Below are positions 42,816-58,950 of a DNA stretch of 64,000 nt, piece by piece. Below the pieces are notes generated by a model, which was given only the letters and a program-made list of their open reading frames with translations, was not told the origin of the DNA and did no database searches. Location: NCBI GenBank assembly GCA_963749155.1, contig CAVVLO010000002.1, positions 1,216,001 through 1,280,000 on the forward strand, in the 5' to 3' direction. Within the stretch, counting starts at the first letter, position 1, and each line of letters begins with the position of its first letter. A program made the position numbers and the translations under genes. Origin of the DNA: an uncultured Armatimonadia bacterium (GTDB taxonomy: Bacteria; Armatimonadota; Zipacnadia; CAVVLO01).

Positions 42816-42825
42816 CCCCTCCTGT

Positions 42826-44661
42826 ATGAGAAAGTCACCGAGTTTCCTGGTTTTGTCAGGCCTGCTTCTCCTGGTGTTGCTTCTGGGCAACTCCCAGTTG
42901 GCTGTTGCCCAAATGCGCGCGTATGCCACTATCAACAAAGTCACCTGGACCCAGCTTGCCAATGCCGTTACCGTGCGTATCGAATCAGACGGCATCCTGG
43001 AGGCTGACCTTGACTGGGAAAATATTGGCAACCTGATTGAGTGGAACGAAGACGTGGGTGACTGGCAGCCTAAGGCCTCTCAATCACTTTCCTTGCAGGT
43101 GGCTAATGGCAAGATTGGGGTTCAGAACTTTGTGGACATAAGCACCTATCCTGTCAGCCATCTCGAATTCTCTCCAATGACTTACGCGGAGCAGGGAATC
43201 GGCTGCAGGGTGCGCCTTCTGTTCTACAAAGAAGCGGGCTTGCTTGAAGCCTTTGGCGATTTTGACATCCGACAGTGGTGGGTAGCCAACTATGTTCCCT
43301 TGCGAGTCGAGGCGCAACTAAGCCGCGACCAGCGCGCTCTGCTTATCACGGTCTATTCCGACAGGCAGATCAATCCTAAAGCCAAAGACGATGAAGCTGC
43401 CGCAATAAAGCAGCGAATTGAAACGGCAAAAAGCTTACTGGTAGTCAGCGAACACGACGGCCTTATCGATGCCGACCTGCTTAATGTGCCCCTGGCAGAT
43501 GTCGTCAGAGAACTCGGCAAGCTGGAAGCCTGCCCCAGGCTGGTACTCCCCGAGGATATCAATCCTTACGTCACACTTTATGCCAAAGATCAGCCCCCAC
43601 TTAGACTGCTTGAGGCTATCGGAAGTATGACCGGCCTGACCTTGTGGCGCACTGATGGTCAATACTCTTATGCCCGCTCCAACATCGAGACAGCCAGCGG
43701 CTATTATGGTTCAAGCGCCTGTACTATCCAGCTGGAAAATATAAAACTGGAACAAGCGCTCAATCTGATGCCTGATTTCCTGTTGCGCGACCTGCGCCCC
43801 TCAGCCGAGCATAACGCAATCAATATCGCCTGCAGCGCACCGATTACTTCTAAAGTCCGGCAAGATATCGAGCTACTCGATCAACCACCACGCCAGGTCG
43901 GCCTGGCTCTGATGCTAGTTCAGTTCGAGAGAGAGAAAAACGAGAAAGTTTCTTTCTCTGCCCGTTATCAGAACGGCAACGACCTGTTTTCCTTCGATTC
44001 TGATCTGGGTACCCTTCTCGGTTGGCTTGACTCACCCAATCCCTTCTTCAGTCCACTTGGCTCAGTAGGCGGTTATTGGGATTTGCTGGTGCGTGGTCTG
44101 AAGACCAACCGCAAGGCCGAACTGCGCTCCTCACCCTACCTGGTTACGTTGTGCGGGCAGGAGGCCAGCCTTTTTGTCGGTAAGACTCAATATGTAAAGC
44201 GCAGTAATCCTTACGATGGCTCGGAAGAAGTTGGTCCTGTCAAGCTCGGAGTCAATCTCAAATTTACTCCCATCGTAGGGCCGGAAGGTGTGGTAACTCT
44301 TAAAATCTGGGCTTCCGATTCGAGCATCATTGACCTTGATGCCCAGACCGGTCAGCCTACTCTGCGCTCGGCCGAATTCACGGGCACGGTCCGCGCCAAT
44401 TCTGGCGAAACGATCTATATCGGTGGCCTGGAATTACAGCGTCGCGAAAAAATCGAACAGAAGCTGCCTGTGCTTGGCGATCTGCCTCTGATTGGTAAAC
44501 TCTTTACCTCCACCAGCAAGTTGGAGGTCGACTCAGATTTTGGACTCTTCATTACGCCTTTCCTCTTGCCCGATTCGCAGGGCTTTCCAGCCCAGCAGCT
44601 CGGTCTGATGAATCGCGTTCAACTTATGATGGACTCTGAGACTAAGGAAGGTAAGCAATGA
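42826..44661 (+). CDS. Secretin-family outer-membrane protein 2 (extra AMIN-like N-terminal domain)
   Basis: Signal peptide; GETIYIGGL...LPVLGDLPLIGKLF...LFITP. Confidence 0.85.
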   Translation: MRKSPSFLVLSGLLLLVLLLGNSQLAVAQMRAYATINKVTWTQLANAVTVRIESDGILEADLDWENIGNLIEWNEDVGDWQPKASQSLSLQVANGKIGVQNFVDISTYPVSHLEFSPMTYAEQGIGCRVRLLFYKEAGLLEAFGDFDIRQWWVANYVPLRVEAQLSRDQRALLITVYSDRQINPKAKDDEAAAIKQRIETAKSLLVVSEHDGLIDADLLNVPLADVVRELGKLEACPRLVLPEDINPYVTLYAKDQPPLRLLEAIGSMTGLTLWRTDGQYSYARSNIETASGYYGSSACTIQLENIKLEQALNLMPDFLLRDLRPSAEHNAINIACSAPITSKVRQDIELLDQPPRQVGLALMLVQFEREKNEKVSFSARYQNGNDLFSFDSDLGTLLGWLDSPNPFFSPLGSVGGYWDLLVRGLKTNRKAELRSSPYLVTLCGQEASLFVGKTQYVKRSNPYDGSEEVGPVKLGVNLKFTPIVGPEGVVTLKIWASDSSIIDLDAQTGQPTLRSAEFTGTVRANSGETIYIGGLELQRREKIEQKLPVLGDLPLIGKLFTSTSKLEVDSDFGLFITPFLLPDSQGFPAQQLGLMNRVQLMMDSETKEGKQ

Positions 44662-46382
44662 TACGACTTATTCTGGCTCTGACCCTGATAACTGTAATGC
44701 TTGCGCTGGTGTTGGTCCCTGCCTCTGCTGCGCCAGTCTATAGCAGCATCACCGAGATCACCTCAAGAGAGCTTTCTAATGGGGTGCAGATCACCATCAA
44801 GGCCGACGGGGTAATCGAGTGGCATGTCCCTCGCCGGTTTAACAGCACCACGCCTACCAGCAGGCTGGAGGTACACTTTCCCGCTTCGCTCAACAGCAGT
44901 GGGGAAAGCACCTTCTATATAAACAAATATCCTGTCAGCCTGGCCCAACTGCAGATTGCACCCGATGCCAAGGAAGGGGTGGGGGTCGAGTTATACATAA
45001 CAATGATAGAGCCCTCTACCTTCTCAGTTTCGCAAAGCGATGATATGACCAGTGTCGTCATCACCATCAATAGCGACCGCACCCTGGCAGCAGGCGCTGG
45101 CGGCAAAGGGGCAGGAGGCGAAGCCGAGAGCCAGCTTTTTGTTGAAGCCGATGATATGGGCCTCCTGACTGTGAACGCACAGAAGGCCAGCTTCCCCAAG
45201 CTTATTCGTATGGTCGGCGAAAAAACTGGCCTGGATATCGTGGTAAACGATGCCGCCTCCCTTGCCAACCTGACGCTCTCTATCAACCTTACTGGCGCCA
45301 AACCTGAAGAGGCCTTCCAGGCTATTGCTTCTGCCACTGGACTTGCGCTTTCCAAGCAGGGCGATGAGATACCCATCTATATGTTTAGCCAGGGCATCCC
45401 GGTTGATCTGGCTTCCTACCGGCTCTCTGCCACCGAGTCCTTCTCCATGGACCAGATCCTTGCCTCCGATGCTCCCAAGATGCTGCCCAACTTCCTGTTG
45501 CAGTATCTTCACGTGAACAATGCGCAGAATGCCGTCGTTGTTACTGCGCCTGATCAGATGCTTGAAAAGATTGGCGCTGACCTGGACAAAGTGGATATTG
45601 GCCCGCCGGTCATTATGGTTGAGGCTCTGGTCGTGGAGTTCAAGGACACCGAAGACAAAGATAGTTTTATGTCGATGGTCTACCGCAGTGGTGAGCGTCA
45701 ATTTATCACCAGACCTGACCAGGGGCTCTCCTATTACACCGACATTGGCTCTTTGCCAAGCAACTTCCAGGCCTCTCTTAAGGCACTGGAAAACAGCAGT
45801 ACTGCTCGAGTCGTGGCCAACCCGAGGATGTCCTGCCTCAACGGCCGGTATGCCACTGTCTTCATAGGGAAGATCCGCTTCATCAACGTAGAGTTCCTTT
45901 CTTATGGCACGCTGGTCAAGTTGATTCAAGGTGTCAACGTCGGCGTCAGCTTGACTATCGCTCCCTGGACGGGCGGTAATGGCGAGATCACAACCCTTAT
46001 CGTGCCTCAGGTCAGCAACATCGCCGAGTTGGACCGAGAATCCGGCCTGCCTACCCTTAGCACCCGGCAAGTATCGACTACAGTGCGCGTGAAGGATGGC
46101 CAGACGATAATTATCGGTGGCCTGAAGCAGACTCAGGTTTTCGAGCGCGAATCCAAACTCCCGATTCTGGGCGACCTGCCGCTCATTGGCGATCTGTTCA
46201 CGCGCAAAAGCAAGAACAGCGTAGACTCCGAGCTTGTAATCTTCATCACGCCCCATATCCTCAATCCGGAAACTTGCCAGCTCGAAGGCGATGAGCGCGA
46301 GCAGCGCTGGCGCGAAGAATTCCTGGGCGCCGAGGGAGTCAGTTGTGAGGTTCCACTGCCTTCTCTGACTTCTCCCAACTAG
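44658..46382 (+). CDS. Secretin-family outer-membrane protein 3 (extra AMIN-like N-terminal domain)
   Basis: ATGA overlap with secretin 2; VRVKDGQTIIIGGL...LPILGDLPLIGDLF...ELVIFITP. Confidence 0.88.
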   Translation: MIRLILALTLITVMLALVLVPASAAPVYSSITEITSRELSNGVQITIKADGVIEWHVPRRFNSTTPTSRLEVHFPASLNSSGESTFYINKYPVSLAQLQIAPDAKEGVGVELYITMIEPSTFSVSQSDDMTSVVITINSDRTLAAGAGGKGAGGEAESQLFVEADDMGLLTVNAQKASFPKLIRMVGEKTGLDIVVNDAASLANLTLSINLTGAKPEEAFQAIASATGLALSKQGDEIPIYMFSQGIPVDLASYRLSATESFSMDQILASDAPKMLPNFLLQYLHVNNAQNAVVVTAPDQMLEKIGADLDKVDIGPPVIMVEALVVEFKDTEDKDSFMSMVYRSGERQFITRPDQGLSYYTDIGSLPSNFQASLKALENSSTARVVANPRMSCLNGRYATVFIGKIRFINVEFLSYGTLVKLIQGVNVGVSLTIAPWTGGNGEITTLIVPQVSNIAELDRESGLPTLSTRQVSTTVRVKDGQTIIIGGLKQTQVFERESKLPILGDLPLIGDLFTRKSKNSVDSELVIFITPHILNPETCQLEGDEREQRWREEFLGAEGVSCEVPLPSLTSPN

Positions 46383-46511: not shown

Positions 46512-47795
46512 ATGGAATCACTGTTGCTAGTTTTGCTAATGGTATTGTTGCTTGCTCTTTGTGTCAGCTCTGTTGGGGCTGAGGCCGTCTTCCCGATTGC
46601 CGATTTCGGCGCCGCCGCGGATGCAACTACCGACGACACCGCTGCCATACAAGCAGCCCTCGATGCCGCCTCGCAAGCGGGAGGAGGCATCGTCCAACTC
46701 GACAACAAGCAGTACCTCGTGGCAGGCAGCCTCACCCTCCCTCGCGGCGTTACGCTGCAGGGCCTGTGGGAGATGCCCCACCATGCCGCCCTCGAGTTCG
46801 GCACCACCATCTACGCCACCGGTGGCAAGGGCCAGGCTGACGGCACCCCGCTCATCAATCTGATGCCGGATTCGGCCGTGAAGGGGATGACCTTCTTTTA
46901 CCCCGAGCAGCAGCTTTCGGACATCCAGCCCTACCCCTGGACCATCCAGGGCCGCGGGATGCACTCCAGCGTAATTGACGTAACGCTTGTCAACTCATAT
47001 CAGGGTATCGACTTCGGTACCCACGGGCATGAGCTGCACTATATCCGCAACGTCTTCGGCTGCCCCCTCAAAATCGGTGTCTATATAGACAAGTGTACCG
47101 ATATCGGCCGGGTGGAGAACGTCCACTTCAATCCCCACTATTGGCTCAGGTCCAGCGACCCCCAGCTTGCTGCCTTCGCGGACCAGGGCTGGGCAACCTT
47201 GAGAGAGTATCTCTTCGATAACCTGACCGCCTTCCTCATCGGGCGCTCTGACTGGGAATATATCTTCAATACCTTCAGCTTCGGCGCGCATATCGGCTAT
47301 CACTTCATCGAGACACCCTCTGGCGCGACCAACGGCAACTTCCTGGGAATCGCTTCCGACTGGGCCTGGACCAGCGTCAAGGTCGACGCCACCCAGGAGC
47401 CTGGCCTGCTCATCACCAACGGTCAGTTCGTCGGTGGCACAGGCTCTGGCAAGGTCATCGACATCACCGACGGAGTGGTGCAGCTCTCGAACTGCGCCTT
47501 CTGGGGTCCTCAGGATGTTATCGTTTCGATAACTGGTCGTTCTTTCGCCAGCTTCAGCCAGTGCAATTTCTGCCACTGGGATCAGTCCAAACAGGGCGTG
47601 CCTGCTATAGACGCCAAGGGCGGCACGCTGCTTATGCAGAGCTGCCGGTTCGGTCAGGACAAGCTTTCGATCCGGCTCGGGCCGGATGTCGCGGCGGCCA
47701 GCCTCATCGCCAACGGTTTCCGCAAGAAAGTGACCATCGAGAACAACAGCACAGGCCAGGTTGAGCTGGTCGGCAACCTGCCAGTGCCGTATTAA
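46512..47795 (+). CDS. Secreted parallel beta-helix protein (pectate lyase 3 / GH28-related superfamily)
   Basis: DFGAAADATTDDTAAIQAALDAA...GGG.V motif; GRVENVHFNP; RBS AGGAGGT. Confidence 0.85.
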   Translation: MESLLLVLLMVLLLALCVSSVGAEAVFPIADFGAAADATTDDTAAIQAALDAASQAGGGIVQLDNKQYLVAGSLTLPRGVTLQGLWEMPHHAALEFGTTIYATGGKGQADGTPLINLMPDSAVKGMTFFYPEQQLSDIQPYPWTIQGRGMHSSVIDVTLVNSYQGIDFGTHGHELHYIRNVFGCPLKIGVYIDKCTDIGRVENVHFNPHYWLRSSDPQLAAFADQGWATLREYLFDNLTAFLIGRSDWEYIFNTFSFGAHIGYHFIETPSGATNGNFLGIASDWAWTSVKVDATQEPGLLITNGQFVGGTGSGKVIDITDGVVQLSNCAFWGPQDVIVSITGRSFASFSQCNFCHWDQSKQGVPAIDAKGGTLLMQSCRFGQDKLSIRLGPDVAAASLIANGFRKKVTIENNSTGQVELVGNLPVPY

Positions 47796-47875: not shown

Positions 47876-49141
47876 CTACTTAAGATCGGTCAAATCTAGC
47901 GGCCTGTGTTCTTCTTGCAGTTTTGCTTCAGCGACTAGTCGCAGCCTGCCCGCATAACTTTGCCATTCGCCGTCGGTATCCAGGCGGATCAGCCAGGCCA
48001 GCAATCTAAGCGTGCGTTCAGGCTCCTCTTGCTTGCAGGCAAGTTCTGCCGCCCGGAGCAGTGCCTGTAAAGCCATCGAATCACTCGGCCAGAGCGCAAC
48101 AAACAGCTCAAATACGCGGCTTGCGACCTTGTCATGCTCGATTGCGTCCAGCTTCCGCGCCTGCTTCAGCACCGTCATCGAATCCAGGCGACTTGCGCTG
48201 GCCTGGGCGATAAGCCCTTCCACAAGCCCTGAGGCTTCTTCATCGCGTCCAGCAAGCGCAAGCCCTTCGACTGCGGCCAGCTTGTAGGGGGCTGCATCCT
48301 CCGCCTGGTGGGTCTGCTCCATTGCATCGGCGACCATCAGGTTGGCGTCAGGATTGGTCGGCGCCCAGCGTAGCAACGATTTGCCTGCCGCTTTGACCCC
48401 ATGCCAGTTGCCATTTTCGGCGTATTCACGAGCCTGGTCGAAATAATTCTCTTCCAGCGCCGAGGTATTCATCTTCAAGCCGAAAGAAGCTGCCATACCG
48501 AAAGCGAATCCGCCGATATGCGCCCAATAGGCGACGTCCGCAATAGAGGTATGTAGTTCGGTTTCCGCCATCCCCCACATATAGGCCAGCAGCAATTGGA
48601 GAGCAAACCAAAGCCCCAGCACTAGCCAGCCAGTTACAGGATAGACCTGACAGATTATGCGGTATCGGTACATCCAGCCCCAGACGACGAAGACGAACAC
48701 ATTGACCGGTACGAAGTAATACCGCACCGCGAAAAGGCCAAGTATGCCCGCGATGGCCCCGGAGGAACCAACACCCCCTCTTGCCGCCTCGCCCTGGGTA
48801 ATCCAGTGCTCATAGCCGAACTGCGCTCCGATTGCTACCAGCCCAGCGCACAGGTACAACACCAAAAAATTGAAGGGCCCCAGATCGTCCTCGACATGCG
48901 GTCCGAACACCCACAGGAAAAGCATATTCCCAACCAGATGGAAGAGCCCCGCATGGGTAAACATATGGGTCAGTACCTGGCCCCAGGCGAAGTTGTCAGG
49001 CTGGAAGGCCAGCTTGTCCAGTGCCTCTTCATATCCCAGCACCAGGCACAGGATATAGACGATGCCATTGGCTCCGATCAGGCAGTAGGTCGCCCAGGGG
49101 AAATACTGCCCCTTGCGCCAGGTGCCAATCGGTATAATCAT
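47876..49141 (-). CDS. Rhomboid intramembrane serine protease with C-terminal TPR-like helical domain
   Basis: HAGLFHLVGNM, GSSGAI (catalytic Ser), AYWAHIGG (catalytic His); helical-repeat tail. Confidence 0.9.
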   Translation of the reverse strand: MIIPIGTWRKGQYFPWATYCLIGANGIVYILCLVLGYEEALDKLAFQPDNFAWGQVLTHMFTHAGLFHLVGNMLFLWVFGPHVEDDLGPFNFLVLYLCAGLVAIGAQFGYEHWITQGEAARGGVGSSGAIAGILGLFAVRYYFVPVNVFVFVVWGWMYRYRIICQVYPVTGWLVLGLWFALQLLLAYMWGMAETELHTSIADVAYWAHIGGFAFGMAASFGLKMNTSALEENYFDQAREYAENGNWHGVKAAGKSLLRWAPTNPDANLMVADAMEQTHQAEDAAPYKLAAVEGLALAGRDEEASGLVEGLIAQASASRLDSMTVLKQARKLDAIEHDKVASRVFELFVALWPSDSMALQALLRAAELACKQEEPERTLRLLAWLIRLDTDGEWQSYAGRLRLVAEAKLQEEHRPLDLTDLK

Positions 49142-49156
49142 TGGGTTGTCACCCTC

Positions 49157-49861
49157 CTACTGGACGCGAGTATATCTGAAGGGCCGGCCCCGTTTTGACC
49201 CTTTGACCGAGCGCGCTATCAGCCAGCCGCAACCAAAGCCCGCCACGTGAGCCAGCCAGGCCACTCCTGCTCCCTCAATTGTGCCCATCCCCCAAAGCGA
49301 TTGGAGGAGCTGCAAAACGAACCAGTATCCAAGGTACACCGTCGCCGGTAGTTCCAGGATGAAAGGCCAGAAGAACAGGAAGAAGACGGTTAGTATGCGC
49401 GCGTAGGGGAAGAACACCAGATAAGCGCCAAGCACCCCTGCTATCGCTCCGCTTGCGCCTACAATCGGTGTCGTTGTATCTCCAGCGAGCGCTCCAAAGG
49501 CGCTTTGCGCAAGCGCGCCTGCCACCCCGCAGCCAAGGTAGAAGACCAAAAATCTGGGCTTGCCGAGAGAGTCCTCGACATTATCGCCGAACACCCAGAG
49601 AAACCACATATTGCCGATAAGGTGCAGCCAGCCCCCATGCACGAACATATGTGTGATGAGCGGCGCCAGCCCCCACAAATCCACCAGGGAGTGACTTGTG
49701 AACACATCGGCAGGCACAAGTCCCCATCGGCGAGCGAAGGCCTCGAGGATTGGCAGGGGCATCGCTGCCTCGGATAAAAATACGACTGCCGAGGTCAGTA
49801 TCAATGCGAAGACGACAAGAGGTTTCTTGCGAGAGGGCACATCGTCGCTTATTGGGAACAC
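49157..49861 (-). CDS. Rhomboid intramembrane serine protease
   Basis: MFPISD, HGGWLHLIGNM, GDNVED, GASGAI, WLAHVAG. Confidence 0.93.
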   Translation of the reverse strand: MFPISDDVPSRKKPLVVFALILTSAVVFLSEAAMPLPILEAFARRWGLVPADVFTSHSLVDLWGLAPLITHMFVHGGWLHLIGNMWFLWVFGDNVEDSLGKPRFLVFYLGCGVAGALAQSAFGALAGDTTTPIVGASGAIAGVLGAYLVFFPYARILTVFFLFFWPFILELPATVYLGYWFVLQLLQSLWGMGTIEGAGVAWLAHVAGFGCGWLIARSVKGSKRGRPFRYTRVQ

Positions 49862-49876
49862 GGCTGGCCGCCTCCC

Positions 49877-50650
49877 TCAGACTCGAGGCACATCAGGGGC
49901 GAAATGGTCCTGGAAGGACCAGAGCCATTTCTGCATCAGACCTGGAGACTGCGGATGCATCGCTCGCCGCGAGGCGGCCTGGGCTTCCTGCACTCTGCCC
50001 AGATGGGCCAGCGCCTGGGCCAGATGCTGTTGCACATCGGGAGAGTCAGGGCTGCGCCTGGCTGCCCATTCGAGATAAGGCACAGCCTCGGCTAGTCGCT
50101 TGCTCTTGAATAACGCCCAGCCGTAGCTGTCTACAATATAAGGCGAGGCAGGTTCGAGCTCCATTGCATGTTGAAGAGAAGCAAGCGCCAAATCCAGGTC
50201 CTCTTCCAGCTCGACCAGCATATAGCCTGCATCGTTCAGCACCTGGGGATCATCGGGAAAGCGCACAAGCAGTTCTTTGTAATACTGAAGGCTTTCTTCA
50301 CTAGCACCCTGACTGCTGAGCGCCCAGGCATAAGCCAGGGGAGCGCGAGCCCCTGTATCAAGTTCGGCGGCTTTGCGCAGATATTCGAGGCCTTGTTCAG
50401 CCTCTCCGACGCCTAGCATCAACTGACCGGCCCGGCTCCAGACGCTTACTTCATCAGGACGCATTTTTATGGATTGTTCTGCAAGAGCTACAACCTGCAA
50501 GCTGTTGCCTTCCACGCCAGCCTTGTAGGCGCGCGCAAGCAATCGTTCGGAGGCAATAAGGCCAACGAAGTCGGTCCTGAGGGCCGGTGATATCATTATC
50601 ACCGCGTACAGCCCAACCAGAAGCAGTATTGGAATCCAGTATCCTCTCAT
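49877..50650 (-). CDS. Membrane-anchored TPR protein
   Basis: N-terminal TM segment (MRGYWIPILL...); TPRs including LNDAGY and DSYGWALF motifs. Confidence 0.85.
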   Translation of the reverse strand: MRGYWIPILLLVGLYAVIMISPALRTDFVGLIASERLLARAYKAGVEGNSLQVVALAEQSIKMRPDEVSVWSRAGQLMLGVGEAEQGLEYLRKAAELDTGARAPLAYAWALSSQGASEESLQYYKELLVRFPDDPQVLNDAGYMLVELEEDLDLALASLQHAMELEPASPYIVDSYGWALFKSKRLAEAVPYLEWAARRSPDSPDVQQHLAQALAHLGRVQEAQAASRRAMHPQSPGLMQKWLWSFQDHFAPDVPRV

Positions 50651-50652
50651 AA

Positions 50653-51588
50653 TCACACAGGCCAGATGCGCAGATAATTCCAGGCGATAAGGGCACAAGC
50701 CGCCCAGGCCCAGTGAGCCGCCACCAGTTCCAGGTAGGCGCCTCGCCTCAGCCAGGCATAGGATAGCACAAACCCCGCAAGTGAGGCGGCCACAATATGG
50801 ATGCCCGAGGTGCTCATAAGGCCGAAGAACAGCCCCGCTACCAGGGCCACAAGCCAGGTGGGCCTGAAGCCTTTGGCTCCTTTTAACACCAACACCCGGT
50901 AGTAAAGCTCCTGCGAAGGAGCGATAATCACAGCCAGCAAGAGGAGCGCAGGCCAAAGCTGGCCGGAGGTTCTCACAATACCAGCCAGTGCCCACGGTCC
51001 GCGATTGTCGGAGACCATACTGAGCATCAGGTGGTAATCCACAGCCAGCAACCTGGCCAAAATCCAGGTTGCGCCAATATGCGCTCCCCAGCAGACAATC
51101 CAGAGCGCTAGTCCTAATACAAGGCCCACTCCAAGCTGTGCCAGCCAGTGACCAGAAGAGGTGACTGCTTGCACCTGGGCTTCTGCAGACTCTTCGTGCA
51201 GCTTTTTTCTTGAGCGCGGTTGCCAGCTCTCGACCAGCAAGCCCAGCCCATACGCAGCCACGGTTACAAGCTTGACCAGAGAAGTAGCCTCGCCGATTGT
51301 GCCCGAAGAATAAGCTCTGAACAGTCCCCCTGCTGCCAGCGCCGCAATATTTGCCAGGAGGAGAGGTCGGAACAACCGCCAGAAGGCGCTGAAGAAGCGT
51401 GAAGCCCGGCCCGAGCTTTCATGCGGGGCCGGATGGGGAAGGAACCACCACTGATACAGCCATATAACTAGCCCAATCAACACCACAAGCCGGCCGAAAA
51501 CCAGCAGGCTATAAAAACTCGCAACAAAAAGCGAGTCGGCGAAGGCCATCACATAAAGCTTGATCGCTTCCAGGGCACTGCCCAGCAC
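50653..51588 (-). CDS. CPBP/CAAX (Abi) family membrane protein with degenerate catalytic motifs
   Basis: IIAPSQELYYR (canonical EExxxR), FFGLMS (canonical FxxxH), AAHWAW (canonical HxxxN); 8-9 TM segments. Confidence 0.7.
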   Translation of the reverse strand: MLGSALEAIKLYVMAFADSLFVASFYSLLVFGRLVVLIGLVIWLYQWWFLPHPAPHESSGRASRFFSAFWRLFRPLLLANIAALAAGGLFRAYSSGTIGEATSLVKLVTVAAYGLGLLVESWQPRSRKKLHEESAEAQVQAVTSSGHWLAQLGVGLVLGLALWIVCWGAHIGATWILARLLAVDYHLMLSMVSDNRGPWALAGIVRTSGQLWPALLLLAVIIAPSQELYYRVLVLKGAKGFRPTWLVALVAGLFFGLMSTSGIHIVAASLAGFVLSYAWLRRGAYLELVAAHWAWAACALIAWNYLRIWPV

Positions 51589-51593
51589 AGGCG

Positions 51594-54500
51594 CTAATCC
51601 TCTTCCTGGCCGGCAAAGGCCGTGAGATCGTAATACCTCGACGGCACGTAGATATGATCTTCGCCAATGGCCGCGGACTGCTGGATGCCATAGGCGGTAT
51701 CAAAAAGGGTGACCTGTTCTCCATCCTCCAGTTTGAAGGCGTAGAAAGAGCCATTCATCGCGCCCACATAGGCCCAGCCTTCGGAGAGGGCTGGCGAGGC
51801 CAGTATCTCATCGCCTACTTCCTGGCTCCAGAGGGTCTCACCAGTCCCGGCGTCAAGCGCCATAACTTCGCCCTTGCCTGTTGCCACCAGCAACTGGCCT
51901 GCTGTGTAACAGGGAGAAGCCCTGAGCGCTGAGCCCAGTTGCCTTTCCCATATAACTTCGCCACTTCCCGAAGCCAGACAGTACAGCCCTCCATCATCCG
52001 AGCCTGTATAAATCAGGTCGTCTACCACAGCTGCTGCACTGTATATTTCCGAGCCTGCCCGGAAACGCCAGCGCAACTCGCCTGTCTCGAGAGCGATCGC
52101 ATAAAGATGCTGATCCCAGGAGCCGATATAACAGGTATCACCCTGCAGGACAGGCTGAGCCAGCAGGCGACTGCCTGCCGAGAACTGCCAGGTTGGCTCT
52201 CCTGTAGCGAGGTTGATACAGTGCAGCGTGCCCTGCCAGTCGGGAAGCAACAAGCGACCGGAATGCGCAAGCAAGGGAGCGCGCAGCTCGCGCTTGAGAT
52301 CCAGCACGCGCTTCGAATCTCCGTCGTTTACCTCGAAACGGAAGACTTCGCCTTCCTGGCTTGCGAAATAATAATACCCTTCAGAGTACGTGCCGGTGGC
52401 AGCCAGGGTTTGGCCAGCTTTGGCTTCCCAAACCTTGGCGCCAGTCTGGGCATCGCATGCCAGTACCTGTCCACTGGCGCAACCGATAACTACAAGGCCC
52501 TCTGCCACTAGTGGATCGGTGATGACCATTGCTGGCGCGTTGAAGATCCAGCTCTGCTCAAGAGGCGCTGTTAGCTTTGATGGCAGCGCGCCATGCCCAC
52601 GCGGTCCACCCCGGGAAGCAACCCAGAAGGTCTCCTGCAGCAGTTCTTCAGTTTCCGGTGGGGTAAGCGCAAGCTGATACGAAAGCCGGAACTCCTCAAG
52701 CTGTTCGAGTGTGGGCAACACTCTGAGCGCCGCCTGCAGATGTTCGCGCGCTGCCGTATATTGTTTTTGGTCTACCCGCAGCAGGCCCAGCACAAGCTGG
52801 ATTGCGCCCTCTGACTTGGTGTCTTTTGCTTTTTGAAGCGCCTCAATCAACTTGTGACGCGCGCTGGCTCTGGCCATTCTTATCGCCAGAGCGAGTTGCT
52901 CAGAGGCGCTTGCCTTTTGCAATTCCTGTACCAGTTGGTCGGCAGCTTTTTCGCCGAGGATCCGTTCGTAGGCTCGCAGCAACTTGCGATGAGTAGGCTC
53001 GAGCTCGGTGCGCTTGAGAGCTTTGATAATATCAGTTGCCGCAGTTTTATCTTGCAGCCTGGCCAGCGCGTCTGCCGCCCGAGCTACCGTCTCTTCGTCG
53101 GTCTCCTCGAGCAACTTGTGTAACTGGGGCAACTGCTCCTTAAGTGAAGCTAACACTTCCTCTTCACTTGGCCCGCCGCGCTCCGTCAGCTCTGAGAGCA
53201 AGAGTCTTAGTGTCCGTGGAGATTTCGACTCCTTGAGGGCTCCGGCCAGACGCACCCGAGTTGCTTCCGATGCCTTGGGAAGCATCTCTTCCAAAATTGC
53301 CCCGCCTCTGTCTCCTAGTTCCAGCGCCTTTTGCGCCCAATAACGCACCGCGACGCCTGTTGTCATTGAGCTGCGCACCAGCAGTTCAAGCTGATCTGGC
53401 TCAAACTCCAGCTCGCGCCGATGCCTGTGGATAACCGCGACAGAGTCTGCAGACATCAGGCTGTTGTAACGCTGCCAGTCTCGCTCTGACCGCACCAACA
53501 AGTCACGCAACTGCTTGGCGAGGATCTCTTCAGGTGACAGAGACTTGTAGATATCATCTACAATCCGTTCATGGGTCAACTCGTAGCGGCGTTCCTGCGG
53601 ATTGCCTACCCGGCGCACCAGCCCGGCATCGTGCAGATGAAGCAGCACGCGTTCCATCTGGTCTGCTTTGGCTCTCGCTTCCAGTTGCAGGCGCTCGAAG
53701 GTAATGCCAATGGTGGTGTTGAAGCTGCCAGCAAGCGCCTTCAACACTGCGATCCCGAGTCGCCGTTCATTGCCTTTCAGCTTCTTTAACGACTCGTCCA
53801 GATATTGCCCAACAATACGTTCGGCGCCTCCGAGCTTCTGGTACATCGCCCGGGTCGCCAGTTCTTGTTTGTTTTCAAGTTCTTGAAAAAGTTTTCCGCA
53901 GACAATTTGCAGTTTGGGCGGATCGACACCCTCGCCAGACACATCTACGATTATCTGTTCTACCAGGTCTGCTTCAAAACCGATGCCAAAACGTCCCGCC
54001 GGCTTCGTAATCGCTGACCTGGCCCCATCAAAACTGAGGAAAGGCAGCCTGTAGATATGCTCGAACACTTGGGGCAGATGGTTGCGCGCCTCGTCCAGCC
54101 GGGCCATAAAACGCTCTCGGAACATAAGCACTAGCGTGATATTGGCTTCTTCAGCCTTAACTAGCTGCTCGAACTCCGCATTCAGCCAGTCACGCGAGGC
54201 CGGCCCCAGCCTTAACATCACATGTTCATACTGGTCGAAAAACACTATGCAGCGTTTATCCACCTGTTTGGCAGCCGCCAGCACCATCTCGGCGATGGAT
54301 TCGGACGGCTCGGGTTCGAAGCCCAAATCTTCCCGGATTGCGCGCGCAAAAGCCTCCAGCAGATTTTCCTCATATCTGACATAGAGATAGGGCTGTTCGT
54401 CCTCGATGAACTTCGGCAACAGGCCGGCTTTCACGAAACTGGTCTTGCCCGCTCCGCCACGGCCGATAAGCAGCCAAAGGCGCTTCTCCTCATCGGCGAG

Positions 54501-55571
54501 GAAATCGCGGAATTCTCTAAGCTCATTGTCTCGCCCGTAATAAAGCTCCCGGTCAGCCAGCTCGAAGCTGTGCAGAAACTTGTAAGGCCCCTCAGGCAGG
54601 ATTTTTAAGTCCTTTTTCCTGGGGCTGGCGAAGGTCGCCCTGGTCGAATAGCGCACCAGCCGGTTATACAGCGCATTGGCAAAAGCCTGGAAGGTGCCAC
54701 TCTCTCGGCAAAGCAACCGCCCAGAGCTGTTGCGAGTTTTAAGCAGGCTGACTACCTGGGGAAGATAAGCGTGAAATTCAAGTGCCGCTGGCTGTTCGAT
54801 CTTCAACCGTTCGAAGTGCTTCGCGTCGATAATCGGCACTTTGCGGTTGACCCACCACAGGCGCTCCCCATGCGCGCTTATGGCTGACACAACCGGCATA
54901 TCTCGTGCAGTAATAGACACCAACAAGGTGTTGTGGCGAGACAGGCGATGAAGGGTAGAACGCACCTGGGCCACATTGTGCTCGATAGTGCGAGTGGTCA
55001 CTGGCAATAACTGGTTGGCGAGATCGCCGCCCATCTTGATAAGAGTAACTTTTTCCGACTCGGAAAGAGCCTTGACGATTTCGCTGCGGGGGTGATGTCC
55101 GACCACAAAGAGGTTGTAAGCCTCACCAGGTAACAACCGTTCGGCTTTCAGTGCCTCTTCCAGCTTGTCAGTAGGATCAAAAGTGAAAACCAGAGCACAG
55201 TAGCCACGCGTGATTATCCTGGCAAGTTTGGCATATCCTTCGGCCATACCTTCGTCTTTTATGGCTTCCTGGGCCAGTTCGAAACCGCGCTTCTGTGGTT
55301 CTGGTGAGGAGTCGATGGCGGCCTCCAGTTGGGGCCAGAACTCCTCTTCGGCAAGCTCTGCCGCTTCTGGATGCTCGCTACGCCACCACTCGGCCAGGTG
55401 AGAGCGCAAGTTCATTGCCAGACTCGGTCGTTCTTCCGTCGCCGAGATTCCGCTTCCCAGTATGAGTACGAAGGCATCGCGCACGCCTTGATACTCGGCC
55501 ATCAGTTCCCCGATTTCCTGGATTACCATCGTCCTCGGGCTTCGCCCCTGCCCCCATCTAACCTCTGGCAA
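51594..55571 (-). CDS. NLR-like STAND protein: SIR2-like domain, nSTAND1 NTPase, HEAT/TPR repeats, PQQ-type beta-propeller (start probably ATG at 55502 or 55529)
   Basis: ILGSGIS, GY.KLA, IKMGGD (SIR2-like fold); GPYKFL.SF..D...YYGR, GRGGAGKTS, VFFDQYE, LQIVC, GG.....QY, YELTHE (nSTAND1); C-terminal repeated A.D..TG...W PQQ blades. Confidence 0.85.
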   Translation of the reverse strand: MPEVRWGQGRSPRTMVIQEIGELMAEYQGVRDAFVLILGSGISATEERPSLAMNLRSHLAEWWRSEHPEAAELAEEEFWPQLEAAIDSSPEPQKRGFELAQEAIKDEGMAEGYAKLARIITRGYCALVFTFDPTDKLEEALKAERLLPGEAYNLFVVGHHPRSEIVKALSESEKVTLIKMGGDLANQLLPVTTRTIEHNVAQVRSTLHRLSRHNTLLVSITARDMPVVSAISAHGERLWWVNRKVPIIDAKHFERLKIEQPAALEFHAYLPQVVSLLKTRNSSGRLLCRESGTFQAFANALYNRLVRYSTRATFASPRKKDLKILPEGPYKFLHSFELADRELYYGRDNELREFRDFLADEEKRLWLLIGRGGAGKTSFVKAGLLPKFIEDEQPYLYVRYEENLLEAFARAIREDLGFEPEPSESIAEMVLAAAKQVDKRCIVFFDQYEHVMLRLGPASRDWLNAEFEQLVKAEEANITLVLMFRERFMARLDEARNHLPQVFEHIYRLPFLSFDGARSAITKPAGRFGIGFEADLVEQIIVDVSGEGVDPPKLQIVCGKLFQELENKQELATRAMYQKLGGAERIVGQYLDESLKKLKGNERRLGIAVLKALAGSFNTTIGITFERLQLEARAKADQMERVLLHLHDAGLVRRVGNPQERRYELTHERIVDDIYKSLSPEEILAKQLRDLLVRSERDWQRYNSLMSADSVAVIHRHRRELEFEPDQLELLVRSSMTTGVAVRYWAQKALELGDRGGAILEEMLPKASEATRVRLAGALKESKSPRTLRLLLSELTERGGPSEEEVLASLKEQLPQLHKLLEETDEETVARAADALARLQDKTAATDIIKALKRTELEPTHRKLLRAYERILGEKAADQLVQELQKASASEQLALAIRMARASARHKLIEALQKAKDTKSEGAIQLVLGLLRVDQKQYTAAREHLQAALRVLPTLEQLEEFRLSYQLALTPPETEELLQETFWVASRGGPRGHGALPSKLTAPLEQSWIFNAPAMVITDPLVAEGLVVIGCASGQVLACDAQTGAKVWEAKAGQTLAATGTYSEGYYYFASQEGEVFRFEVNDGDSKRVLDLKRELRAPLLAHSGRLLLPDWQGTLHCINLATGEPTWQFSAGSRLLAQPVLQGDTCYIGSWDQHLYAIALETGELRWRFRAGSEIYSAAAVVDDLIYTGSDDGGLYCLASGSGEVIWERQLGSALRASPCYTAGQLLVATGKGEVMALDAGTGETLWSQEVGDEILASPALSEGWAYVGAMNGSFYAFKLEDGEQVTLFDTAYGIQQSAAIGEDHIYVPSRYYDLTAFAGQEED

Positions 55572-55624: not shown

Positions 55625-55664
55625 ACGACTGGCGGCCGGTAAGCAAACCCGCGCCGCCAGTCGT
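55625..55664. other. Strong intergenic hairpin (possible terminator of the oxidative-stress operon)
   Basis: 12-bp perfect inverted repeat ACGACTGGCGGC / GCCGCCAGTCGT; no clear U-tract. Confidence 0.5.
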
Positions 55665-55814
55665 TGTAGACTGCTAGTGTTCTCCAGCGAACAAGCTGCG
55701 TGATAGCCTCTTTCGCCGGCTGTTGCGCAACTCCTTGCTAAAACTGGCTATCAAGCTTTTCTAGCTAGCAAGCTAACTTGCCTTCAAGCTCTGCTTGTGG
55801 TCTCCAGCTTCAGA

Positions 55815-55973
55815 TTATTCAGCCGAGAAGTCGCTTTTGCCTGCCCCGCATACTGGGCAAACCCAATCCTCGGGCACATCTTCCCAGGCAGTGCCCGGGG
55901 CGACGCCGTTATCTGGATCGCCCTCAGCGGGATCGTAAACATATCCACAGATATCGCATACGTATTTCTGCAT
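55815..55973 (-). CDS. rub: Rubredoxin
   Basis: 52 aa [15 protein letters not shown]...[13 protein letters not shown] (below the ORF track size cut-off); RBS AGGAGG. Confidence 0.97.
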
Positions 55974-56009
55974 CGGTCCAGCCCTCCTGCTTCTTTACCA
56001 GAAGCGTGA

Positions 56010-56511
56010 CTAGTTGGCGCGGCGCACCGCGGCCAGATGGCTACTCAACATATTGACGTGATGCATCTCTTCCTTCGCCAGCTGCTCGACCTTGTCCTTC
56101 CCGGAGCGGTCAGGCGTCATTTCAGCCAGGCCATTATAGAACAGCACCGAGTCCTTCTCGAACTGGATGGCCTTGACCAAAATATCTTCCAGGCTTTCCT
56201 GCCCGGTCAGCAGGTCGGCGGGACTCTGCCTGGTGTTGAATATATGGCTGTCCGCCAGCGCCTTCAGGTACATATCAAGCTCGCCGTCCGGATCATAAAG
56301 CTGCGGCTGCCGGGCTTTTTCTGGCAACGATTTTAGAAGGTCCAGGAAGAGCTGCTCATGCTGCACTTCCATCTCGGCCAGGCCAAGCAGCAGCTTGCTG
56401 CCGGCTTCATCCTGCTGGAACTCTGCGGCCTTGCGATAGAACTCGCTGGCCATTGCGCTCGATTAGCGCTGCTGTCTCATAGATTTCTTCTGCGTTAAAG
56501 GTGAGGCTCAT
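56010..56511 (-). CDS. Rubrerythrin-like ferritin-family diiron protein (frameshift near 56455)
   Basis: MSLTFNAEEIYETAALIERNG continues into FY...E..HE...AIQFEKDS..FY...EE.HH. Confidence 0.85.
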
Positions 56512-56516
56512 CGGGG

Positions 56517-57050
56517 TTATCCTCCTGCTACAGGCGCTTCGGCAACTGGCAACACAAACGGCACCGGGCGAGCGCCAAATTCTTTGTCTATCATATAGGT
56601 GCCAGCCATATTGCCCTGGACCATCTCGGTCTTGGCTACATTCTGCTCCGCGTTGGCCTCTTCCTCTACCTGCTCGTCCACATACCACTGCAGCATGGAA
56701 GCGGTCGCGAAGTCTTTCTCTTCCTGCGCCAGCACCATCAGATTATTGATGCGGCCAGTGATATAACGCTCGTGATCCAGAGCGGCTTTGAAGGCCTCAA
56801 CGGGCGTTGCCCACTCTACCTGAGGCGCCTCCAGCGCCGCAAGCTTTGCGCGGCCACCGCGCTCCAGGATGTAGTAGTAGAACTTCATCGAGTGGATAAG
56901 CTCTTCCTTGGCCTGCACATTCATCCAGTGAGCCATACCCATCAGGTTCTTCGCTGCGAAATCGGCCGACATTGCCAGGTACAGATAGCCCGAGAACAGT
57001 TCGGCCGCCACCTGGTCGTTCAAGGCAGTTTCCATTTTTTCGGTAAGCAT
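56517..57050 (-). CDS. ftnA: Non-heme ferritin
   Basis: ALNDQ...E..S.YLY, EE..H..K, HE..IT, LQWYV.EQVEEE. Confidence 0.93.
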   Translation of the reverse strand: MLTEKMETALNDQVAAELFSGYLYLAMSADFAAKNLMGMAHWMNVQAKEELIHSMKFYYYILERGGRAKLAALEAPQVEWATPVEAFKAALDHERYITGRINNLMVLAQEEKDFATASMLQWYVDEQVEEEANAEQNVAKTEMVQGNMAGTYMIDKEFGARPVPFVLPVAEAPVAGG

Positions 57051-57095
57051 CTTTCTAGCCTCCTTTTAGCTCTTCATGCAAGGGACTTCAGTTAG

Positions 57096-57135
57096 AAAGG
57101 AACTCCCCCCTTGCGGGCGGAGTTCCCTCTTTTTC
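57096..57135. terminator. Hairpin between peroxiredoxin and ferritin
   Basis: AAAGGAACTCC...GGAGTTCC followed by CTCTTTTT. Confidence 0.55.
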
Positions 57136-57155
57136 AAACTAATCGCTGGCTGGGA

Positions 57156-57839
57156 CTACTTGGCGCCTGGATCTTTCTTGAAGCAGAGGAACCAGTCGAG
57201 ACAGTAGTAGTCGTCGCCAGCGCCTTCGACGCGCTCTTTGGCGGCGCCGCAGCTGCCGGGCGGGGGAACGATAACATCCTCACCGGGCTGCCAGTTGGCC
57301 GGAGTTGCGATCTTGTATTGGTCGCTCCGCTGCATGGCAATCAGCAGGCGCTTGATCTCTTCCATATTGCGCCCGTTGGACAGGGGGTAGTACAGCATGG
57401 CCCTGACCTTGGCCTCCGGGTCGATGACGAACACTGCACGGACAGCCTGAGTGTTGCTTGCGGTAGGCTGCAGCATCCCGTATTTCTTGGCGACTTCCAT
57501 CGTCAGGTCGCTGATAACCGGGAACATTACCTGGATGTTGCTCATACCCTTGAACTCGATTTTCTCGGCGATGGTGCGCAGCCAGGCGATGTGGCTGAAA
57601 GTGCTGTCGATTGACAGCCCGATTAGCTCACAGTTTAGCGCCTTGAACTGGTCGGTCATTGAGGCGAAGGTCATGAACTCGGTGGTGCAGACGGGTGTAA
57701 AGTCAGCCGGATGGCTAAAAAGAATGACCCATTTCCCTTTGTAGTCATTCGGGAAATTCATTGGGCCTTGCGTCGTCTCGGCCTGGAACGAGGGAGCTTT
57801 GTCTCCAATAAGTGGCAGATGACCAAACTGTTCTTCCAT
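57156..57839 (-). CDS. Peroxiredoxin (Prx6/AhpC-TSA family)
   Basis: FSHPADFTPVCTTE, GRN..E..R, TPANW, C.DWFLC tail. Confidence 0.95.
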   Translation of the reverse strand: MEEQFGHLPLIGDKAPSFQAETTQGPMNFPNDYKGKWVILFSHPADFTPVCTTEFMTFASMTDQFKALNCELIGLSIDSTFSHIAWLRTIAEKIEFKGMSNIQVMFPVISDLTMEVAKKYGMLQPTASNTQAVRAVFVIDPEAKVRAMLYYPLSNGRNMEEIKRLLIAMQRSDQYKIATPANWQPGEDVIVPPPGSCGAAKERVEGAGDDYYCLDWFLCFKKDPGAK

Positions 57840-57903
57840 TGTTATTCCTCCTGTTCAAGTGTGATTCAAGCCCGTATGGGCGTCTTCCCGTCGGGGTACT
57901 GCT

Positions 57904-58478
57904 TTAGAAACAACCGCAAAGCGCCTCAAAATAGGCCTTTGGATGCGCGCAAGCCGGACACTGGTCAGGAGCTGCTGGTCCAGTGTGAATATAGCCGCAG
58001 TTGCGGCAACGCCACTGGTTTACCCCTACGCGCTCGTACATCGTGTCCTCTTCGATATATTTGGCCAGCGTGCGATACCGGCGCTCGTGATATGACTCGG
58101 CTACGGTGACGAACTCGAAGATCTTGGCGATTGCCTCGAAGCCTTCGGCGCGCGCGGTGTTTGCGAAACCTACATATAGCTCGGAAGCCTCGAACAACTC
58201 GCCTGCGGCGGCTTCTTCAAGGTTCTCTACGTTGTGCCGATAACGCCAGCAGGATACGAGGCGGTGATTTCTACCTCGCCTCCCTCAAGAAATTTGAAAA
58301 AGCGCTTGGCGTGCTCTTTCTCCTGGTCGGCGGTTTCGGCGAAGATGGCTGCGACAAGCTCATAGCCTTCCTTTTTGGCTTGCCCTGCAAAATAGGTGTA
58401 CCGGTTGCGAGCCTGAGATTCCCCTGCGAAAGCTTTGAGCAGATTCTGCTCGGTCTTGGTGCCCTTAATAGATGCCAT
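57904..58478 (-). CDS. rbr: Rubrerythrin (frameshift near 58228)
   Basis: NLLKAFAGESQARNRY, EKEHAKR; C-terminal E..HE..Y and WRCRNCGY...CPACAHP in a second frame. Confidence 0.93.
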
Positions 58479-58517
58479 GAAGTCTCCTCCTTCAGTACCT
58501 GGGTTCAATGTTTCTGG

Positions 58518-58940
58518 TCAGGCTGACTCGTTCTTTTTGGTACATTCAGGACAGCGCCCTCTGAACTCCAGGCGGTGTTCAAGTACCTCGAATTCTTCGA
58601 TCTGATCGGCAAGCTCATCAAGCGCGCCTTCGGCATCGAGAGCCAAATCGAAGACCTTGCCACATTCGATACAGCGAAAGTGGTAATGGCGTTCTGTGTC
58701 AGCATCATAACGCCGTTTCTTACCGGTAAGCTCGAGCTTCTGGATCATACCGGCCTCTGCCAGGCACTCGAGGTTGCGGTAGATGGTCGCCAGGCTTACC
58801 TTGGGAACCTTCTTTCGGACCAGCACGAAAACTTCATCGGCTGTCGGGTGAGACCTCAGTTTGGCGAGTTCTTCAAGTATCGCTCTGCGCTGAGGAGTCA
58901 TCTTCATTGAGGATTTCTGCTTCCACTCGTCTTTTTCCAT
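58518..58940 (-). CDS. perR: Fur-family peroxide-responsive regulator (PerR-like)
   Basis: TPQR..IL, HPTADE, SLATIYRNL, RYD....HYHF.CIEC, CPEC; first gene of a peroxide-defence operon. Confidence 0.85.
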   Translation of the reverse strand: MEKDEWKQKSSMKMTPQRRAILEELAKLRSHPTADEVFVLVRKKVPKVSLATIYRNLECLAEAGMIQKLELTGKKRRYDADTERHYHFRCIECGKVFDLALDAEGALDELADQIEEFEVLEHRLEFRGRCPECTKKNESA

Positions 58941-58950
58941 GGTCACCACT

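Follow-up and report, generated by a model that had tools for sequence, protein, structure and literature searches.

Does a tight cluster of five genes in an uncultured Armatimonadota bacterium encode one conserved system, in which an NLR-like STAND protein acts on proteases in the membrane, or do genes of different origin merely lie side by side there? The cluster occupies positions 47876-55571 of a 64,000-nucleotide (nt) stretch of the source genome, G000; this whole stretch is called the window, and coordinates are window positions unless a locus is named. The original prediction read the five genes as a sensor-to-intramembrane-proteolysis module for envelope surveillance or immunity. We find that the STAND gene is a vertically inherited core gene of its class and that its sole conserved neighbour is the gene for a TPR protein, predicted to be exported. 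The cluster is probably a set of genes with different histories and not a conserved system: a STAND switch and its TPR partner, next to which the remaining genes have been juxtaposed.

Five minus-strand open reading frames (ORFs) lie within this interval, exactly where they had been predicted. In the order of transcription they are as follows (with the basis of each assignment in brackets).

51594..55529, minus strand: STAND gene, 1311 amino acids (aa) (Pfam, ortholog alignment, start-codon inspection)
50653..51588, minus strand: CPBP/Rce1-like polytopic membrane protein, 311 aa (Pfam)
49877..50650, minus strand: TPR protein, 257 aa, predicted to be exported (Pfam TPR families)
49157..49861, minus strand: Rhomboid 1 (Rho1), 234 aa (Pfam)
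47876..49141, minus strand: Rhomboid 2 (Rho2), 421 aa (Pfam)

The STAND frame is open from a TTG at 55571 (51594-55571, 1325 aa); the most likely start is the ATG at 55529, which agrees with the N-termini of the orthologs. The long ORF of the TPR gene (49877-50995, 372 aa) overlaps the CPBP gene, and its start was placed at the ATG at 50650, giving 257 aa. None of the five proteins reached the cut-off of an NCBIfam model.

A core gene of one class

A full-length ortholog of the STAND gene is present in all 61 same-class genomes compared, which represent 15 families and 32 genera; the frames are about 1300-1400 aa long and share about 30% identity. The collection contains 79 genomes of the class, and 78 carry a single copy of the N-terminal domain of the protein. 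The one miss, G034, is an assembly of 750 contigs; there the C-terminal part lies at the edge of a contig, in an open frame of 918 aa, which fits a contig break. These relatives are uncultured Armatimonadota, classified as Candidatus Zipacnadia, Armatimonadia or candidate division WS1. A profile of the N-terminal domain, from an alignment of 41 orthologs (A2), was searched across the phylum. It matched 19 of 19 same-class genomes as well as G000, and in other classes it matched 1 of 181 genomes, weakly (E 9e-7, on a 586-aa ORF).

In a FastTree tree of 41 proteins, all 7 taxonomic families with at least two rows are monophyletic. The family label changes 12 times along this tree, the minimum possible, with a mean of 28.1 when labels are shuffled. 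The match between tree and taxonomy points to vertical descent, and the STAND gene is a core gene, in single copy, of one uncultured Armatimonadota class. Word-based protein searching returned only two full-length relatives, P0001 (97% identity) and P0002 (63%), and missed the orthologs at about 30% identity. A locus search with the STAND protein alone gave no match in genome or metagenome contigs. The amino-acid make-up of the G000 copy differs from the rest of the alignment.

Domains of the STAND protein

The protein had been described as a SIR2-like/nSTAND1/HEAT/PQQ fusion, and this architecture is confirmed by Pfam, AlphaFold2 and Foldseek, with the HEAT repeats recognised through orthologs.

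54597..55529, minus strand: N-terminal SIR2-like domain, residues 1-311, catalytically degenerate (AlphaFold2, Foldseek, alignment columns)
53559..54587, minus strand: nSTAND1 NTPase module, Walker A and Walker B intact (Pfam PF20703)
51594..53460, minus strand: C-terminal sensor region, with helical repeats of the HEAT/TPR type and then a PQQ/BamB-like beta-propeller, borders approximate (Pfam)

The nSTAND1 match (PF20703) spans residues 329-671 of the long ORF with an E value of 5.2e-38 and 132.1 bits, above a cut-off of 27.1. The beta-propeller matches PQQ_2 (E 1.3e-34) and Beta-prop_ACSF4 (E 3e-46). HEAT_2 stays below threshold in the window protein (21.3 bits vs 27.7), and HEAT exceeds its cut-off in two orthologs, P0049 and P0050. 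Pfam gave no match to the N-terminal 312 aa even at E<=5, SIR2 included. The A2 alignment served as the input for an AlphaFold2 model of this domain, which has a mean predicted local distance difference test score (pLDDT) of 92.3 and a predicted template modeling score (pTM) of 0.90. Foldseek searches of the PDB with the model gave the SIR2 domains of defence proteins as best matches, led by SPARSA (8y80_E, E 5.8e-8). Further matches are to 8wc0_B (E 6e-7) and to ThsA, DSR2, KomC, SIR2/HerA and an AVAST5 filament chain (9nc9_R). The identification of the N-terminus as SIR2 rests on this predicted fold. A predicted complex of two copies of the domain scored 0.00 against a mark of 0.42, which counts in neither direction.

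The residues of the family depart from those of active SIR2 domains. Residue roles were taken from the EfAvs5 paper (PMC11897194), according to which NADase activity is lost when N141 is mutated and the position normally occupied by His is N180. The column of the catalytic Asn in TTN(F/Y)D holds Asn in 0 of 41 family members (E 20, D 9, S 6, G 4, A 1, C 1), and that of the His in KLHGD holds His in 0 of 41 (G 19, A 13, L 5, others 4). Among 12 outgroup SIR2_2-STAND proteins the Asn is kept in all 12 and the His in 10. The same replacements appear in a HMMER alignment to the SPARSA Sir2 domain, a weak one (E 0.22). Judged by these columns, the SIR2 domain of the family is catalytically dead and presumably not an NADase, in line with the earlier proposal that the NLR does not degrade NAD+. 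The ATPase side is intact: the residues of Walker A (G356, G361, K362, S364) and of Walker B (D432) do not vary among the 41 orthologs.

To collect remoter relatives of the N-terminal domain, 1.84 billion representative proteins were searched with its profile; 1622 matched at E<=1e-3 and 33 at E<=1e-30. About 18 of these are full-length family members of about 1300 aa. Pfam was run on 20 of the 150 listed proteins: P0049 and P0050 belong to the family in full length and gave no SIR2_2 match. In the remaining 18 a SIR2_2 domain (PF13289) is present, in most cases fused to NACHT, nSTAND3, nSTAND5 or nSTAND1; twelve of these proteins form the outgroup compared above.

These results bear directly on the idea that the cluster is an Avs-type anti-phage or conflict system, in which the NLR would sense phage proteins and the membrane proteases, not an NADase, would be the effector. 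The order of SIR2 fold, STAND module and repeat sensor is indeed that of Avs5 (PMC11897194), and 9nc9_R is among the Foldseek matches. The remoter relatives likewise carry SIR2_2 on NACHT, nSTAND3 or nSTAND5, with the catalytic Asn and His kept. However, the STAND gene is single-copy, class-wide, vertically inherited and set among housekeeping genes, and the catalytic residues are gone in 41 of 41 orthologs. No PADLOC model at E<1e-3 with meaningful coverage fits any of the five proteins, the best value being E 6e-4 for the SIR2 model against the STAND protein. No mobile-element marks and no tRNA genes were found within 40000-64000, and the GC content of the cluster resembles that of its flanks. 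Because of the distribution, the context, the loss of residues and the lack of PADLOC matches, we consider a defence function highly improbable.

Gene order around the orthologs

Forty loci around STAND orthologs were compared; in 34 the downstream flank is 4 kb or longer. Partner homologs were sought by tblastn (E<=1e-3) with the window TPR, CPBP, Rho1 and Rho2 proteins as queries. A TPR homolog lies directly downstream of the STAND gene in 34 of the 40 loci, and homologs of CPBP, Rho1 and Rho2 in none. The TPR gene is the sole conserved neighbour of the STAND gene. The proposal that the NLR and the membrane genes form a unit thus stands for the TPR gene and fails for the other three, whose lack of co-occurrence with the STAND gene had itself been named as grounds for rejecting it.

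At the 34 junctions, measured with a heuristic choice of start codons, the gap between STAND and TPR genes is at most 30 nt in 30 cases, and the genes overlap by 4 nt in 12. The window TPR ORF scores above the Pfam cut-off for several TPR families, and with the TPR protein of a relative as query it is the best match in G000. A hydrophobic N-terminal run is found in 27 of the 34 TPR proteins and a lipobox-like motif in 14; the window protein has a single hydrophobic segment, at its N-terminus, and lacks a Cys. From these features we predict that the TPR domain is exported.

Of the six loci without a TPR gene, L033 has only 486 nt of flank and the other five form one clade (families f5, f9 and f12). 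In five genomes of this clade a profile of the TPR family gave only partial generic matches, the best of 56 bits, inside ORFs of about 1000 aa. Pfam analysis of 54 ORFs from 11 of 20 picked loci revealed two contexts. The first reads dnaG - rpoD - STAND - TPR - class I/II aminotransferase - Iso_dh. In G000, dnaG-rpoD is 160 kb away. The second, that of the f5/f9/f12 clade, reads ychF - cyclophilin - STAND - mreC - mreC.

As a separate observation, two tandem MreC paralogs take the place of the TPR gene in this clade (L044:6254-7974, minus strand; L046:9027-10764; L042:6209-7977, minus strand). The pair is followed by an ORF of about 170 aa without a Pfam match and, in L047, by a DUF1844 protein.

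The rhomboids and the CPBP-like protein

Both rhomboids match PF01694 (cut-off 22.6 bits), Rho1 with E 2.3e-34 and 119.1 bits and Rho2 with E 8.5e-25 and 88.1 bits. Direct reading of the sequences bears out the claim that both keep the GxSG serine and the catalytic His of transmembrane segment 6 (TM6). The H..H...N stretch of TM2 and the His stretch of TM6 of Rho2 align to E. coli GlpG; Rho1 has no match among PDB sequences at E<=0.01. The rhombosortase model TIGR03902 (cut-off 84 bits) gave 24.7 and 20.3 bits for the two rhomboids, and the GlpG cut-off of NCBIfam was likewise reached by neither. Rho2 consists of a rhomboid core and a helical C-terminal extension of about 190 aa. The description of this gene as rhomboid-TPR holds for its first half; the TPR character of the extension is weak (TPR_19, E 0.021).

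A genome-wide tblastn search found Rho1 and Rho2 to be the only rhomboids of G000. With Rho2 as query, rhomboids were found in 40 of 40 relatives. Nearly all have one of about 240 aa, and at least 19 of the 40 have a 390-470-aa match to Rho2 at E<=1e-28. By these matches, Rho1 and Rho2 are orthologs of rhomboids found throughout the class. In 39 of the 40 relatives they lie on contigs other than that of the STAND gene; in the exception, G008, they are about 35 kb from it. The two types are adjacent to each other in G007, and adjacent and convergent in G022.

The CPBP-like gene has a different history. Its product, with about 7-8 hydrophobic segments, matches PF02517 (CPBP/Rce1-like) with E 2.3e-8 and 34.6 bits (cut-off 22.4), or 38.4 bits in the genome scan. 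The catalytic motifs of CPBP proteases are EExxxR, FxxxH and HxxxN/D. Read by eye against the one paralog in G000, those of the window protein are QExxxR, FxxxS and HxxxA, so that the catalytic motifs are putatively degenerate (Glu to Gln, His to Ser, Asn/Asp to Ala). No homolog was found at E<=1e-3 in any of the 40 relatives. A word-based search of 5.8 billion proteins gave only two, at 98% and 84% identity, and PDB sequences gave no match at E<=10. By these searches the gene is specific to the G000 lineage and fast-evolving.

A proposed switch with a partner predicted to be exported

Given the architecture, residue states, distribution and synteny observed, we infer the following mechanism for the STAND-TPR pair. 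The STAND protein would be a cytoplasmic ATP-driven switch or scaffold whose HEAT and beta-propeller region binds a cellular cue. Its NOD module would then exchange nucleotide and oligomerise, with the dead SIR2 domain as an assembly or ligand-binding module, not as an NADase. The output would be regulatory and not abortive infection. The recurrent partner would be an exported TPR protein or lipoprotein; its gene comes directly after the STAND gene, and the stop codon of the one often overlaps the start codon of the other. Because the partner encoded directly downstream is predicted to be exported, a role of the pair in envelope housekeeping is suggested. In the G000 lineage only, the pair would have left the dnaG-rpoD neighbourhood, a CPBP-like gene would have been inserted within it, and both rhomboids would have been placed after it.

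The link from NLR to rhomboids fails as a conserved system, which leaves the cluster outside the catalogues of defence systems and shifts the focus to the STAND-TPR pair. Our literature search of main texts found no paper that describes this STAND family and none that joins a rhomboid with a STAND NTPase. The available part of the Zipacnadia paper (PMC10290634) mentions neither rhomboid, NTPase nor SIR2.

The cluster in G000

The absence of this arrangement elsewhere leaves the question of whether the five genes act together in G000 itself. On this explanation the core STAND switch would have been rewired in the G000 lineage to intramembrane proteolysis, in a five-gene operon that gates both rhomboids, with the CPBP pseudoprotease perhaps serving as a membrane adaptor and the TPR protein as a candidate rhomboid substrate. 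The layout is favourable. The genes are as tightly packed as had been claimed, with gaps of 5 nt (STAND/CPBP), 2 nt (CPBP/TPR), 15 nt (TPR/Rho1) and 15 nt (Rho1/Rho2) on one strand, and a Shine-Dalgarno-like GGAGG precedes both rhomboid starts. From this spacing the five genes are probably one operon. No internal terminator-like signal exceeds shuffled sequences in the cluster; the consensus scan as such was uninformative (3 promoter-like sites vs 3.2 expected, 5 terminator-like sites vs 8.8 expected). Both G000 rhomboids sit here, and the window TPR protein carries a hydrophobic anchor at its N-terminus where many relatives have a lipobox. The gene order is the same in a strain of about 96-97% identity from another sample, where contigs bridge 47941-50148 and 50179-52065; such support is near-trivial.

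Transcript data add little to this. One RNA library yielded four contigs of 151-183 nt that fall within the Rho2, CPBP and STAND genes with 0-2 differences, and another two pieces with only a partial fit. None of these contigs spans a junction between genes, and DNA carry-over is possible. Upstream of the cluster lies one candidate boundary.

55625..55664, no strand: perfect 12-bp inverted repeat with a 16-nt spacer (repeat search)

The repeat lies in the spacer of about 240 nt between a rubredoxin gene and the STAND start and is followed by no T-run; it may be a transcript boundary or an operator.

Several observations weigh against our view that the genes are merely juxtaposed. Packing at 2-15 nt, with no internal terminator-like signal above chance, is like that of a true operon. 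The CPBP-like gene sits exactly between STAND and TPR, a pair that is coupled elsewhere, and its insertion into a translationally coupled pair looks selected and not random. The STAND branch of G000 has a length of 1.65 in the FastTree tree, against a median of 0.23, and is longer than any other. Compared with one genome of family f11, the G000 STAND protein is 30% identical and DnaG 41%, whereas eight other comparisons gave 37-50% for STAND and 37-49% for DnaG. The long branch, and a divergence beyond that of DnaG, are compatible with a change of function. The pairing with TPR is itself not obligatory, the TPR gene being unseen in the f5/f9/f12 clade. All genes that recur downstream of STAND (TPR, MreC, CPBP and the rhomboids) encode membrane or envelope proteins, which fits a weaker form of the envelope-surveillance idea. 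The status of a core gene does not by itself deny the protein an immune role. As to sampling, the same-class collection contains no other genome of the order of G000.

Nevertheless, the arrangement occurs in no independent lineage (0 of 40 loci). The rhomboids are class-wide and are kept elsewhere, so their presence here needs no link to STAND. The STAND protein is cytoplasmic and the TPR domain exported, with no known contact between them; the RNA contigs cross no junction; and neighbouring bacterial genes are often functionally unrelated. A functional link of STAND to the CPBP-like protein and the rhomboids in G000 draws no support from comparison with relatives; given the packing, the insertion and the long branch it is possible, and we regard the rewired five-gene module as unlikely. 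The larger claim of the original prediction, a sensor-to-intramembrane-proteolysis or immune module, is not upheld by the locus comparison, the core-gene distribution or the PADLOC search.

A broader scenario joins these elements. A SIR2-STAND immune receptor would have been domesticated at the root of the class and would serve, together with exported TPR or MreC proteins, as a housekeeping ATP switch in the biogenesis or quality control of the envelope. In G000 it would gate the rhomboids through the CPBP adaptor, and the anchored TPR protein might be one of their substrates. If true, this would be a cytoplasmic NLR that controls intramembrane proteolysis; we think the full scenario quite improbable. 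The reading that we prefer is still that of a STAND-TPR pair with juxtaposed neighbours.

Surrounding genes

Downstream of the cluster and convergent to it are three consecutive secretin genes (41418-46382, plus strand; Pfam Secretin, E 5e-31 to 1e-38), and a pectate-lyase-like gene occupies 46512-47795. The genes immediately upstream of the cluster, which share its strand, form an oxidative-stress and iron cluster (55800-58949, minus strand) that includes the following.

Within 55800-58949, upstream of STAND, minus strand: rubredoxin-like small ORF
56010-56453, minus strand: rubrerythrin
56517-57050, minus strand: ferritin
57156-57839, minus strand: 1-Cys peroxiredoxin
58518-58949, minus strand: Fur

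Farther upstream, alpha-L-rhamnosidase domains are spread over two overlapping ORFs (62439-63866 and 61390-62568, minus strand); this split may be a frameshift or start-codon artefact.

The rpoD genes of five relatives, which encode the primary sigma factor with sigma-70 regions 1.1-4, have two or three Big_5 bacterial Ig-like domains between region 1.2 and region 2. In the rpoD of G000 the two matched stretches lie directly next to each other on the DNA, as would be expected if the Big_5 insert were missing. The genes with Big_5 domains are listed by locus.

L014:1185-3263: rpoD with Big_5
L018:12358-14439, minus strand: rpoD with Big_5
L025:2396-4537: rpoD with Big_5
L035:12232-14343, minus strand: rpoD with Big_5
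L048:2072-4138: rpoD with Big_5

Comparison with known systems

The two rhomboids resemble GlpG-type rhomboids in the PF01694 domain, the H..H...N stretch of TM2, the GxSG motif and the TM6 His. They differ in scoring below the NCBIfam cut-offs for GlpG and rhombosortase and in the extension of about 190 aa on Rho2. The CPBP-like protein is comparable to the CPBP/Rce1-like pseudoproteases, of which scaffolds of the S. aureus SpdC type are an example; it shares with these the CPBP-family domain and, apparently, deviating residues in the catalytic motifs. No sequence relationship to characterised CPBP/Rce1-like members was found in the PDB or the protein collection.

The N-terminal domain of the STAND protein matches the fold of the SIR2 domains of ThsA, DSR2 and SPARSA, which are defence NADases. 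Unlike these, it lacks the Asn of TTN(F/Y)D and the His of KLHGD, and it is fused to a STAND module.

Bacterial SIR2-STAND NLR-like proteins are known as patchy anti-phage weapons. The closest parallel is Avs5 (AVAST type 5), which has the same order of an N-terminal SIR2 fold, a STAND module with Walker A and B and a repeat sensor (PMC11897194). The positions of its catalytic Asn, N141, and of its His/Asn are replaced in 41 of 41 orthologs here (roles from the same text, PMC11897194). The present NTPase is of the nSTAND1 type and the sensor combines HEAT repeats with a PQQ propeller. The gene has no PADLOC match, and as a core gene it occurs across the class in single copy and by vertical inheritance, not in a patchy manner. 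Here an Avs-like architecture has become fixed in the core genome of an entire class, with its weapon domain inactive, its ATPase motifs intact and its gene coupled to that of a TPR protein predicted to be exported. Such a protein would exemplify the co-option of an immune-type switch for a cellular function.

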